A DNA stretch of 64,000 bases, taken from a virus. The position numbers were made by a program, and so were the translations under genes. The stretch lies in IMG/VR virus record IMGVR_UViG_3300027693_000002; one strand, given 5' to 3'. Below the pieces are notes generated by a model. The model searched no databases. It was not told where the DNA came from and saw nothing but the letters and a program-made list of their open reading frames with translations. This document shows positions 58,743 to 61,488 of this stretch, piece after piece; position 1 is the first letter of the stretch; the number at the start of each line of letters is the position of its first letter.

Positions 58743-59074
58743 GTCCCAACGAATTGGGCAATCAAAAGGGTTGGATCCCTAATCATCTCGAACTCAGCGT
58801 CCGACAAAGCGATATGTCCCAACGAATTGGGCAATCAAAAAGGATTGGATCCAAGGCTGCCCAGTCGAACCTCTCCGAAGGTGCCTAGTCCCAACGAATT
58901 GGGCAATCAAAAAGGATTGGATCCTTGGAAAACGTGGCCGGCTTGGGGAACCCAGAGTGTCATCGTCCCAACGAATTGGGCAATCAAAAAGGATTGGATC
59001 CGTCGATCACTCGGGCCTCGTGGATCTTTTTGGGGTAGTCCCAACGAATTGGGCAATCAAAAAGGATTGGATCC
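58743..59074 (-). CRISPR. CRISPR array: 5 direct repeats (37 bp, GTCCCAACGAATTGGGCAATCAAAAAGGATTGGATCC; distal repeat 58743-58778 degenerate, 36 bp) and 4 spacers (37, 35, 40, 36 bp)
   Basis: repeats at 58743, 58816, 58888, 58965, 59038; repeat contains two short hairpins (CCCAA-cgaa-TTGGG and CAATC-n7-GATTG); strand inferred from adjacent effector gene and degenerate distal repeat. Confidence 0.9.
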
Positions 59075-59106
59075 TAGCTCCTGGAGTTATCAATGATCTA
59101 GGTGAC

Positions 59107-61488
59107 TTAGGGCGCAGATTGCGAGGAGCTCTGACTCGTTTGAGTTGGGCTACTCTTTTTGACCTTTGGTGCACCTGATTCGGTAACAGATACACCGGTT
59201 TCGCTCGATCGAGCGATCTTAGGGTTTTTCCCCTTACTGGACCCTTTGCATCTCTTTTTCGGCCCGGGCAGACCCTTACCTGTAGTAGCAATTTTGACTA
59301 GGTTGTCTGGGGCTGTACCAAAATCCGTATTGCAAGTATATCCGCAGGCTAAGCACCGGAATACCTCACCATGGCGATTCTCAGAGTCACAGCAACTGCA
59401 CTTAGGGCATGTGCAGCTAGTCCAGTTTGGCCAACACTCTATGATGTAGTACCCCTTATGCTTACCAGTCTCGCTGAAAGCCTTATGAAGCACCTGGATG
59501 AACCATCGGTTTTCACTCTTTGGTTCAAAGTAGGAATCCCAACCGAGCTCGCGTTTTCCACTTCCATGAAACACTTTGCCGAGGTTCTTCAGATCCTCGA
59601 TGATAAATACAATCCTCGCTCGTGGAACTAGGTGATTGACCCTCCTAATAATGGAGTTCACCACTCGACGAGAGAAGTCTGCCTTGCTCTTGGACAACTT
59701 CTGGTAGACCGGATGCTTACGTCTCAGCTCCCACATCGTATCGTTGTAATGCTTGCTGGTCTCTTGGGAGAACCTCAATCTAATACTGGTCAGGTTGGCA
59801 ATCCTCTTGTCCGTCAACTTGACTTTCTTGGGTACCCCATTCTTATCTAGCTTGATCTCGTTGTCTTTTCTGTACTCGAGCACCTCAACTAAACTTGGGT
59901 CACCGTGACGCATCACCCATTTGGCTATGTGAATGGTATTTGATCCCATTGTAGCCCAATCCACGGCATCAACAGGCATTCCGAATCGATGGCACACATT
60001 CTCCTTCGCCTTCGATGCTGAGAACGCCCTAACCCGGGTAATCTCCTCTTGTTCTTCTGAAGTCATTGCATCAAAAGTCTCAGCTCTGATCTGAGCCTCG
60101 AATGCATTCGTTCTCTGTCGGTAGGACTCAATTTCACGGAGTAGTTCCGACTCCAAGGCGAACCGAGTAACAACCTCATAGTCGAGGCTAGCATTCATCA
60201 CTCGATAGACTCCAACCCCCACAGGGTTAGTTTGACCTAGATCTATAGCCACTAGAACTAAGGGATCCTCACTTTTTAGGTAGAGCTTGTTCAATAACTC
60301 CGGTGCTTTGACCATCTTCGTGATCGACTTCGAAACAACTGGGACTATCTGCTCCTTGTAGCAGAAGGCCACAACTCCACGCTTGGGGTCAATCACTGGA
60401 TCCCCGAACATGCCGAGCAAGGTGCTGGGGGTTGACCCATCAACAAACAAGTTACGCCATCGAACGTTTCGAAGTAGACCCCGAAGATCGAACACTACCC
60501 AATCCTTACCGAAGAAAATCACTGCCAGGATGGCACTCTCGGCATTACTGTTCAATCGCATCATGTGATGACGGTAAGAGGGTAGAGCTAGCTTACCTTG
60601 CCTAACCCTACGAGAGTCCCTCTTCGCATAGAGAGCTGTGTAAGACCGTCGAATCCTGCCCTTCCTGAAGTTGATCTTAGGACCTTCTGTCGTGCTCTCC
60701 TTCCGTTGATGCCCTGGGATATACCCAGGGCCCCCCTTCAAGTGACCTAATCGATCGACAGTACCCTTCTCAATCGCAGTATTGATCTCACGACAGTATC
60801 CAGCATACTCAGAGGGTAAGACAATGCCATCTGGGTTCCTAAAGTCAAATTCATCTACACTAATATCCACATAACACATGATGCTGTGATTGACTCCAGG
60901 GGGCTTTGCCAACTTACGCTCAGGAGTCATGTACTCGTAAGGGGTTGGATCAAACTCCGTCTCTGCCTCCCCCGAAGCCCTACGCTTTTTGTTGAGTGCC
61001 TCGTGCTTACTCTTGGCCTTCTGGAGTTGATTCTCCCCCCTCGTGATCACTCCTAGATAGATTCCCCTGGCGAGACCAAAGATCTTGTTCAGACCTTGGA
61101 CTGATGTGTATCCAAAATCAGGTACTGAACTATCTTGAAAGAACCGTTGATGCTCTTTTTTGGTACTAGATCCGCTTGGTACTGTCTCCAACTCCTTTAC
61201 AGAAAGGCTGTAAACATAGAGCTGAATAGCCTCACTCACTCGGTAAATTGGAAACTCCTCAAAAGGTCGACTCTGCGCAACTACCAAGGTCTTAGCCGGA
61301 GGTCGAAAGTTTGGGAGCTCGCCCCTTGATACCCCTCGCTCACTCAGAAACGCTAGGGCGGCTTCCTCTCCGTCTTTCTTGAGCACCTTCCCAGCCATCT
61401 TGTTGTCTTTGGAGCTGAACTGAAGGCCTTTGAACAGATCCGCATGCTTTTGTTTCAAGAGCTCTAGGGGGGTTGGTAGGCTGCTCAT
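59107..61488 (-). CDS. Cas12-family (type V, TnpB-derived) RuvC nuclease, 793 aa; compact effector in the Cas12j/Cas12l size class
   Basis: RuvC-I LVLVAIDLGQTNPVGVGVY, RuvC-II RIVFIIEDLKNLGKV, zinc finger + RuvC-III TSCTCPKCSCCDSENRHGEVFRCLACGYTCNTDFGTAPDNL; stop 32 nt from CRISPR array. Confidence 0.8.
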   Translation of the reverse strand: MSSLPTPLELLKQKHADLFKGLQFSSKDNKMAGKVLKKDGEEAALAFLSERGVSRGELPNFRPPAKTLVVAQSRPFEEFPIYRVSEAIQLYVYSLSVKELETVPSGSSTKKEHQRFFQDSSVPDFGYTSVQGLNKIFGLARGIYLGVITRGENQLQKAKSKHEALNKKRRASGEAETEFDPTPYEYMTPERKLAKPPGVNHSIMCYVDISVDEFDFRNPDGIVLPSEYAGYCREINTAIEKGTVDRLGHLKGGPGYIPGHQRKESTTEGPKINFRKGRIRRSYTALYAKRDSRRVRQGKLALPSYRHHMMRLNSNAESAILAVIFFGKDWVVFDLRGLLRNVRWRNLFVDGSTPSTLLGMFGDPVIDPKRGVVAFCYKEQIVPVVSKSITKMVKAPELLNKLYLKSEDPLVLVAIDLGQTNPVGVGVYRVMNASLDYEVVTRFALESELLREIESYRQRTNAFEAQIRAETFDAMTSEEQEEITRVRAFSASKAKENVCHRFGMPVDAVDWATMGSNTIHIAKWVMRHGDPSLVEVLEYRKDNEIKLDKNGVPKKVKLTDKRIANLTSIRLRFSQETSKHYNDTMWELRRKHPVYQKLSKSKADFSRRVVNSIIRRVNHLVPRARIVFIIEDLKNLGKVFHGSGKRELGWDSYFEPKSENRWFIQVLHKAFSETGKHKGYYIIECWPNWTSCTCPKCSCCDSENRHGEVFRCLACGYTCNTDFGTAPDNLVKIATTGKGLPGPKKRCKGSSKGKNPKIARSSETGVSVTESGAPKVKKSSPTQTSQSSSQSAP

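Follow-up and report, generated by a model that had tools for sequence, protein, structure and literature searches.

A type V-J (Cas12j/CasPhi) CRISPR-Cas cassette on a probable huge-phage genome

We analysed a 64,000-nucleotide stretch of the IMG/VR virus record IMGVR_UViG_3300027693_000002 (the window), in which the gene for a 793-aa Cas12-like nuclease is followed on the minus strand by a short CRISPR array. Our comparisons indicate, with a probability of roughly 0.93, that this locus is a type V-J (Cas12j/CasPhi) cassette carried on a large mobile genome, most likely that of a huge phage. The cassette is genuine and apparently functional. Type V-J was described in 2020, and it now comprises at least 18 named orthologues as well as solved structures. 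Cas12j proteins are prized as hypercompact genome editors, and the locus contributes a further divergent orthologue, whose identity to full-length relatives among 1.84 billion cluster representatives does not exceed 43%; as its repeat and handle are defined, the protein could be synthesised and tested directly. The locus changes nothing in the knowledge of type V systems. Two by-products of the comparison are evidence of a frozen Cas12j array while the cassette moves between phage genomes, and the frequent occurrence in V-J loci of solitary handle units, some of them self-matching.

The effector and its array

A phmmer search of all PDB chains with the 793-aa protein returned near-full-length matches to three solved Cas12j proteins: CasPhi-2 (7lys; query residues 19–784 against residues 18–756, E = 5.4e-140), Cas12j-3 (7odf; E = 4.4e-134), and Cas12j-SF05 (8iew; E = 2.8e-128). 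An earlier reading of the same DNA, made without database searches (the sequence-only reading), had named the Cas12j class as the nearest resemblance, and these full-length matches bear it out. The same reading had reported that the N-terminal 430 aa matched nothing nameable, which proved incorrect. Counted from the alignment, the identity to CasPhi-2 is 39.4% overall (731 aligned columns) and 42.1% over residues 19–430. Because these residues align to CasPhi-2 at 42% identity, we assign the N-terminal 430 aa, from sequence comparison, to the Cas12j N-terminal region, which in Cas12j-3 contains the PAM (protospacer-adjacent motif)-interacting and RNA-handle-binding domains (PMC8298400).

The catalytic residues were next compared across the family. 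In an alignment of 37 homologues, Asp-416, Glu-631, Asp-722, and the four cysteines at positions 694, 697, 712, and 715 are invariant, in agreement with the RuvC-I, RuvC-II, zinc-finger, and RuvC-III arrangement already recognised from the letters. The concern that the RuvC residues might not fall on catalytic positions was not borne out, as D416, E631, and D722 align with D413, E618, and D708 of Cas12j-3, and mutation of the latter abolishes activity (PMC8298400). R340 aligns with Cas12j-3 R338, a strictly conserved residue that contacts the crRNA (CRISPR RNA) handle; the RuvC insertion is unique to the Cas12j family, whose four zinc-binding cysteines are likewise strictly conserved (PMC8298400). 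The corresponding insertion segment here, G642-S-G644-K-R...G649-W650...E659-N-R-W662 (GSGKR..GWD..ENRW), is conserved among the 37 homologues, and within it G644 corresponds to G630 of Cas12j-3 and K657 to R643; lysine at position 657 is the majority residue of the family. Like these two positions, R340 is invariant or almost so across the 37 sequences. The triad of CasPhi-2 consists of D394, E606, and D695.

CasPhi-2 (PDB 7LYS, 7LYT, 7M5O) shares with the window protein the full-length architecture, the RuvC triad, the zinc ribbon, and the size class, and their loci have in common a repeat that ends GAUUGC-stem-loop-GAC, an array adjoining the gene, and the lack of cas1, cas2, and cas4. The two differ in about 60% of residues, in length (757 aa against 793 aa here, with insertions at about 255–315), and in the sequence of the stem-loop. 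The likeness to Cas12j-3 (PDB 7ODF) also extends over the full length with the four cysteines conserved; that enzyme cannot itself process its pre-crRNA, unlike Cas12j-1 and -2. Cas12j-SF05/Cas005 (PDB 8IEW; P0017) is 38% identical over 96% of the query, and its locus likewise has a downstream same-strand array and solitary handle units; it differs in having 737 aa and about 34 repeats, compared with 793 aa and 5 repeats in the window. With 793 aa, the protein falls within the Cas12j size class of ~700–800 aa.

To place the protein within the family, larger collections were searched. An exhaustive HMMER search of 1.84 billion representatives (clusters at 50% identity) yielded 107 proteins at E ≤ 1e-30, nearly all of 700–820 aa; the best full-length relatives in this search are 41–43% identical, and one 420-aa fragment is 62% identical. 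A search of 5.8 billion sequences gave 39 matching clusters, with full-length relatives 30–40% identical and many of them on contigs of 300–620 kb. The identical protein is present in Joint Genome Institute (JGI)/IMG and Logan assemblies; it was not found in the IMG/VR copy searched. Neither the start of the protein nor the repeat occurs in one supplementary file of the preprint describing Cas12j-11 to -18, and a literature text search gave no match to the repeat sequence. Against 50,697 GenBank phage records, the locus had no megablast match, and tblastn gave only a TnpB-like match with 15% coverage.

These distances bear on the proposal that the locus represents a new or divergent type V subtype, with an N-terminal half that has no kin among known effectors. 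The closest full-length proteins are just 38–43% identical and Pfam gives only a sub-threshold TNB-domain match, as such a subtype would lead one to expect. However, the three solved Cas12j proteins align over the full length, N-terminus included, which refutes the proposal; moreover, an identity of about 40% is usual when named Cas12j orthologues are compared, and the repeat has Cas12j-specific motifs. Cas12j-1, -2, and -3 are themselves mutually ~40% identical (PMC8298400). Because the named orthologues are only this similar to each other, we take the protein to be a new divergent member of Cas12j, an orthologue-level lineage and not a new subtype. The locus carries every sequence-level hallmark of type V-J, making a separate subtype very improbable.

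A plain IS200/IS605 TnpB lying by coincidence next to an array had been considered as well. The C-terminal 60 aa do match TnpB/Cas12f zinc-ribbon domains, and a genuine TnpB is encoded elsewhere in the window (14036–15280). This likeness to TnpB/Cas12f (PDB 7WJU, 8DZJ, 8J12) comprises the C-terminal RuvC-III and zinc ribbon and is confined to residues 667–727 (E ~1e-7), with no similarity outside them, whereas the window protein is monomer-sized, has N-terminal domains of its own, and is twice the size of TnpB, which has about 400 aa. It matches neither OrfB_IS605 nor HTH_OrfB and scores 20.7 bits on PF07282, below the cut-off of 26.3; the true TnpB at 14036–15280 scores 97 and 69 bits on the OrfB_IS605 and TNB models. 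Homologues on many independent contigs also have an adjacent same-strand array, which argues against coincidence, and we attach a negligible probability to this explanation.

The type V-J assignment is also supported by the array, whose coordinates, 37-nt repeat length, and position 32 nt downstream of the 793-aa open reading frame (ORF) we confirmed (Table 1). In crRNA sense, on the minus strand, the repeat reads GGATCCAATCCTTTTTGATTGCCCAATTCGTTGGGAC. Its 3' end folds as CCCAA-UUCG-UUGGG, a 5-bp stem closed by a UUCG tetraloop and preceded by a weaker stem, CAAUC...GAUUG; the terminal stem-loop next to the spacer had thus been correctly recognised. Cas12j repeats are 36–37 nt long and combine ATTGC in the centre with a stem of 5 nt, a tetraloop, and GAC at the 3' end (PMC9917002). 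The window repeat shows all of these features, its stem measuring 5 bp, and the same pattern was seen in 15 homologous loci. Five 37-nt repeats at spacer-length spacing cannot have arisen by chance. Neither a conventional leader nor, on the minus strand, a terminator-like site is present in the 32 nt that separate the cas12j stop codon from the first repeat, and the array is probably co-transcribed with cas12j.

No anti-repeat was found on either strand of the window by k-mer scan, because the sole other repeat-like sequence near the locus is a same-sense solitary handle unit (SRU, described below); a 12-nt chance match lies 21 kb away. Rfam and tRNA scans of the window gave no matches, and no omegaRNA or tracrRNA (trans-activating crRNA) candidate was found. 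When 185,579 bacterial and archaeal species genomes were scanned for the handle, we obtained two single matches against a chance expectation of ~1, both from rumen Bacteroidales metagenome-assembled genomes and both inside apparently conserved sequence without an array.

The description of a minimal type V locus without adaptation genes also held. None of the 105 window ORFs of at least 70 aa matches the Cas1, Cas2, or Cas4 families, the window ending 2.5 kb beyond the gene start. There was no such match within 10 kb on either side of the locus in its close relative L039, or around seven homologous loci. These data are in agreement with the report that acquisition genes are missing from nearly all CRISPR systems of huge phages and that their arrays are compact (Al-Shayeb 2020, PMC7162821).

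From the characterised family members, we infer how transcription, processing, PAM recognition, cleavage, and targeting would proceed. The cas12j gene and the downstream array would be transcribed together from the minus strand, and cleavage of the transcript inside the repeats would fall to the RuvC site of the effector itself, which does this in Cas12j-1 and -2, or else to an RNase of the host. The resulting crRNA would keep the 3' part of the repeat, ~20–25 nt ending ...GAUUGCCCAAUUCGUUGGGAC, followed by the first 14–20 nt of a spacer, and no tracrRNA would be needed. The 793-aa protein is predicted to bind the handle, find double-stranded DNA with a T-rich 5' PAM, form an R-loop of ~17 bp, and cleave the DNA in staggered fashion with its single RuvC site (D416/E631/D722). 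Without Cas1, Cas2, and Cas4, the four spacers would form a fixed guide set, presumably aimed at rival phages or other mobile elements that share the host.

Comparison with a close relative and the phage assignment

The closest relative of the locus is found on L039, a JGI contig of 120 kb, whose 793-aa variant differs from the window protein at six residues. The cassette is ~99.7% identical between the window and L039, whereas the flanks are 4–8% different (Table 1). On the left, the near-identical block begins at the degenerate repeat farthest from the gene. On the right it ends with the 74-nt block upstream of cas12j that presumably holds the promoter and the 5' untranslated region (UTR), and homology between the two genomes stops completely 72 nt upstream of the ATG. 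Beyond this point lies a mosaic junction: window positions 61563–62939, which include the SRU, a 15-bp hairpin, and two ORFs (one of 104 aa and one of 210 aa with a weak C2H2 zinc-finger match), are replaced in L039 by an unrelated 556-nt segment (9372–9927) with a 111-aa ORF. A 9-bp hairpin encloses the cas12j start codon, and no obvious Shine-Dalgarno sequence precedes it.

As the spacers are identical in L039 while the flanks differ by 4–8%, these data suggest that the array is static and that the cas12j-array unit is a cassette whose exchange or conversion is more recent than the divergence of the flanks. A static array is what one would expect of a locus without adaptation genes.

The assignment to a huge phage draws on the relatives and on gene content. 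Homologues are located on IMG/VR viral contigs of 126–529 kb and on JGI contigs of 246–620 kb, and the contigs carrying the window's own sequence measure 102 and 120 kb. The gene content of the window is phage-like, with many small ORFs along with genes for a CCA-adding enzyme, an RNA ligase, an ADP-ribosylglycohydrolase, a ThiF/E1-like protein, and a radical-SAM protein.

Several observations weigh against a functional phage-borne type V-J cassette. No capsid, terminase, or tail gene was recognised in the window, and it is because no structural hallmark gene was found there that the phage assignment rests on relatives and gene content. We detected no sigma-70-like promoter on the minus strand. 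None of the four spacers has a convincing protospacer: the concatenated spacers gave no blastn match to the 50,697 GenBank phage records, and exact seeds of S1, S2, and S4 were not found in IMG/VR, so that the spacer searches suggested at the outset produced no convincing target. Finally, cas12j differs from its L039 counterpart at eight nucleotides, and six of these changes alter the amino acid, a pattern that is no signature of strong purifying selection and argues for recency.

Spacer S3 requires a separate comment. Its first 18 nt match 17 IMG/VR contigs (L020–L036), in two unrelated capsid-like genes and in different reading frames. In nine viral contigs, the first 18–19 nt are found exactly in an HK97-type major capsid gene, with a TTG PAM in six of the nine, and the other eight contigs have the match in a different capsid-like gene with CCG or CCA flanks. 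The length of the match would suffice for Cas12j targeting. The remaining 16 nt of S3 match the HK97-type capsid group at random level, and the matches to capsid-like genes are probably due to chance. Because about one match per 18-mer is expected by chance in IMG/VR (a rough estimate of the collection size), we did not count S3 as having a target.

With no targets found, four spacers only, no adaptation genes, and three-quarters of the substitutions in the gene nonsynonymous, the locus could also be regarded as an inactive relic, structurally intact but unused, with a frozen array. Against this, the ORF is uninterrupted, the catalytic, zinc-binding, and handle-binding residues are intact, and the repeats are perfect. 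In addition, the block is near-identical in two genomes whose flanks have diverged by 4–8%, which indicates recent transfer or retention rather than decay, and phage CRISPR systems normally have a short array and lack adaptation genes (PMC7162821). We consider a relic quite improbable and favour the intact type V-J cassette.

Solitary handle units near cas12j

While the array itself had been described correctly by the sequence-only reading, a sixth, partial copy of the repeat at 61598–61620 was missed. This unit, the SRU, covers exactly the part of the repeat that is expected to survive in a mature crRNA, and the other 14 nt needed for a full repeat are unrelated. It ends 109 nt upstream of the ATG and is followed by AGCAGAGCGCTCC and a (TTTCC)4 tract; its guide is AGCAGAGCGCTCCT, also written AGCAGAGCGCTCCTTTCC. 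A perfect 15-bp hairpin ends shortly before the SRU (Table 1). This hairpin sits in the segment missing from L039, and the 211-nt region folds with z = -5.4. The SRU is present in the identical Logan contig L001 and missing from L039; because L039 keeps the gene and the 5' UTR without it, the SRU is not required for the system.

One candidate role for the SRU is that of a CreR/crlRNA-type autoregulatory guide, with which Cas12j would repress its own promoter. The unit keeps exactly the mature-handle part, in sense orientation and close to the start codon, and type V-A loci often have a standalone repeat upstream of cas12a, which is likewise conserved (Shmakov et al. 2023, bioRxiv 10.1101/2023.03.03.530964). 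Truncated handle units near cas12j also recur in related loci, and in two of them, L004 and L012 (see below), the guides match nearby sequences with T-rich PAMs in front. The SRU guide, however, has no PAM-flanked partial match near the promoter or in the whole 64 kb, where its best match is 12 of 14 nt with a CTA flank (~0.4 expected by chance), and it has no exact match in IMG/VR. The guide is furthermore predicted to pair back onto the SRU's own upstream flank, and the unit is absent from the closest relative. Autoregulation by the SRU is thus improbable.

The near-identical cassette is flanked by the SRU on one side and the terminal repeat on the other, both in the same orientation. In type V-A, a standalone unit and a terminal degenerate repeat have been suggested to mark a site at which the locus could be lost or recaptured through recombination (Shmakov et al. 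2023, bioRxiv 10.1101/2023.03.03.530964); in the main text of that preprint, "V-J" and "Cas12j" each occur 0 times. The V-A standalone repeats resemble the SRU in being solitary repeat-like sequences that adjoin the effector gene and have no identifiable target. They differ in that the V-A units are near the detection threshold, whereas the SRU is a 22/23-nt copy of the handle part only and belongs to subtype V-J.

Related loci were then scanned with, for each locus, the hairpin of its own array plus AC. Among 13 distinct loci, units outside the main array were found in eight: the window, L004, L010, L012, L013, L040, L042, and L043. Multiple handle-only units are present in seven of the 12 loci other than the window, and L005 has one degenerate extra unit. 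L010, L013, L040, L042, and L043 have solitary units on both sides of cas12j, some of them within annotated genes. In L013 there are mini-arrays with spacers of just 12–16 nt, and in L040 six units are scattered without any regular array, one of them being flanked by a 33/36-nt duplication.

In L004 (IMGVR_UViG_3300048837_000975; 5649–5881, 4824–5573), five handle-only units, preceded by a TACAAT box, lie directly upstream of the cas12j homologue. All five guides match a 249-aa ORF directly upstream, over 33, 27, 17, 17 (one mismatch), and 14 nt. On their 5' side, these matches are flanked by TCA, TTC, TCA, TCG, and CCT, giving T at PAM position -3 in four of the five (TBN or TTN). The target ORF has no Pfam or PHROG match, and the units form an apparent self-targeting or regulatory mini-array. 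In L012 (Ga0315285_10000472; 6036–6100), cas12j itself contains an in-frame insertion made up of a repeat and a 14-nt duplication. The ORF remains open, with the protein reading ...TGDPVLNPKDCSVSRDTGDPVNDP..., and the guide after the inserted repeat matches the duplicated copy over 11+2 nt with a TTC PAM.

The self-matches of L004, L012, and L040 cannot be due to chance; they concern related loci and not the window. Candidate explanations are a role in regulating neighbouring genes, a role in excluding near-identical genomes that co-infect, and an origin as recombination by-products. We tentatively raise the possibility, doubtful as it still is, that the handle-only units around cas12j are functional parts of type V-J systems and not debris. 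They may be hard-wired single-guide units made without adaptation machinery, as in L004 and L012, which would, if true, regulate or exclude near-identical genomes. The units and the terminal repeat may also serve as direct-repeat recombination handles that move the cassette between huge-phage genomes. The two options are not mutually exclusive.

Feature coordinates and neighbouring genes

Table 1. Features of the Cas12j locus and neighbouring genes in the window, with nucleotide differences from L039
Feature	Position	Strand	Remarks	Difference from L039
cas12j (CasPhi) gene	59107–61488	minus	ATG start; 793 aa; near-full-length phmmer matches to PDB 7lys, 7odf, 8iew	8/2382 nt
cas12j residues			RuvC triad D416/E631/D722; zinc ribbon C694/C697/C712/C715; handle-contact R340; RuvC insertion ~G642–W662	
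CRISPR array	58743–59074	minus	five 37-nt repeats and four spacers; Cas12j-type repeat motifs	
Repeat starts	58743, 58816, 58888, 58965, 59038	minus	4/5 identical as 37-mers	
Spacer S1 (first in transcription order)	59002–59037	minus	36 nt	
Spacer S2	58925–58964	minus	40 nt	
Spacer S3	58853–58887	minus	35 nt	
Spacer S4	58780–58815	minus	36 nt	
Trailer-end degenerate repeat, farthest from gene	58743–58779	minus	5' part with one substitution and one indel; 3' handle intact; left edge of near-identical block	
Gap, cas12j stop codon to first repeat	59075–59106	minus	32 nt	
Array plus gap	58743–59106		four spacers and five repeats identical	0/364 nt
Upstream conserved block (5' UTR block)	61489–61562	minus	74 nt; right edge of cassette common to L039	1/74 nt
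9-bp hairpin enclosing cas12j start codon, GCUGCUCAU-CGUU-AUGAGCAGC	61480–61501	minus		identical
Solitary truncated repeat (SRU), CTGATTGCCCAATTCGTTGGGAC	61598–61620	minus, same as cas12j	22/23 nt of handle part of repeat	missing
Perfect 15-bp hairpin at end of upstream 104-aa ORF	61627–61679	minus	ends 6 nt before SRU	missing
42 nt past array	58701–58742			2/42 nt (4.8%)
ABC-ATPase fragment	58227–58700	minus	157-aa ORF	8.0%
Further flank	55863–58226			4.3%
63-nt direct repeat	58215–58277 and 57405–57467		first copy at 3' end of ABC-ATPase fragment ORF	
Type IV effector module	6439–10387	minus	~49 kb from Cas12j locus	
Cas6-like gene	9461–10387			
Csf1/Cas8 gene	8292–9536		E 2e-13	
Csf2/Cas7 gene	7089–8072		E 9e-33 (PDB 7jhy Csf2, 5e-6)	
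Csf3/Cas5 gene	6439–7092		E 1e-29	
486-aa protein adjoining type IV module	4978–6438		no match at all	
IS605-type TnpB	14036–15280	plus	complete	
Second TnpB-like gene	63637–64000	minus	C-terminal end; runs off right end of window	
850-aa protein	27378–29930	minus		

The ORF that abuts the trailer end of the array encodes the C-terminal half of an ABC-transporter ATPase, in which the signature motif, Walker B, and the H-loop are present and Walker A is absent; the same fragment is found in L039. The 63-nt direct repeat has one of its two copies at the 3' end of this ORF.

The window also encodes a type IV CRISPR-Cas effector module. No second CRISPR array was found in the window, and no DinG, CysH, or RecD partner of this module was recognised. 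The complete TnpB has HTH_OrfB, OrfB_IS605, and TNB domains, and the L039 counterpart of the second, truncated TnpB-like gene is 476 aa long with a PF07282 match. Finally, the 850-aa protein, which has no PHROG match, contains a region similar to the major-vault-protein "shoulder" domain (E 3e-9).

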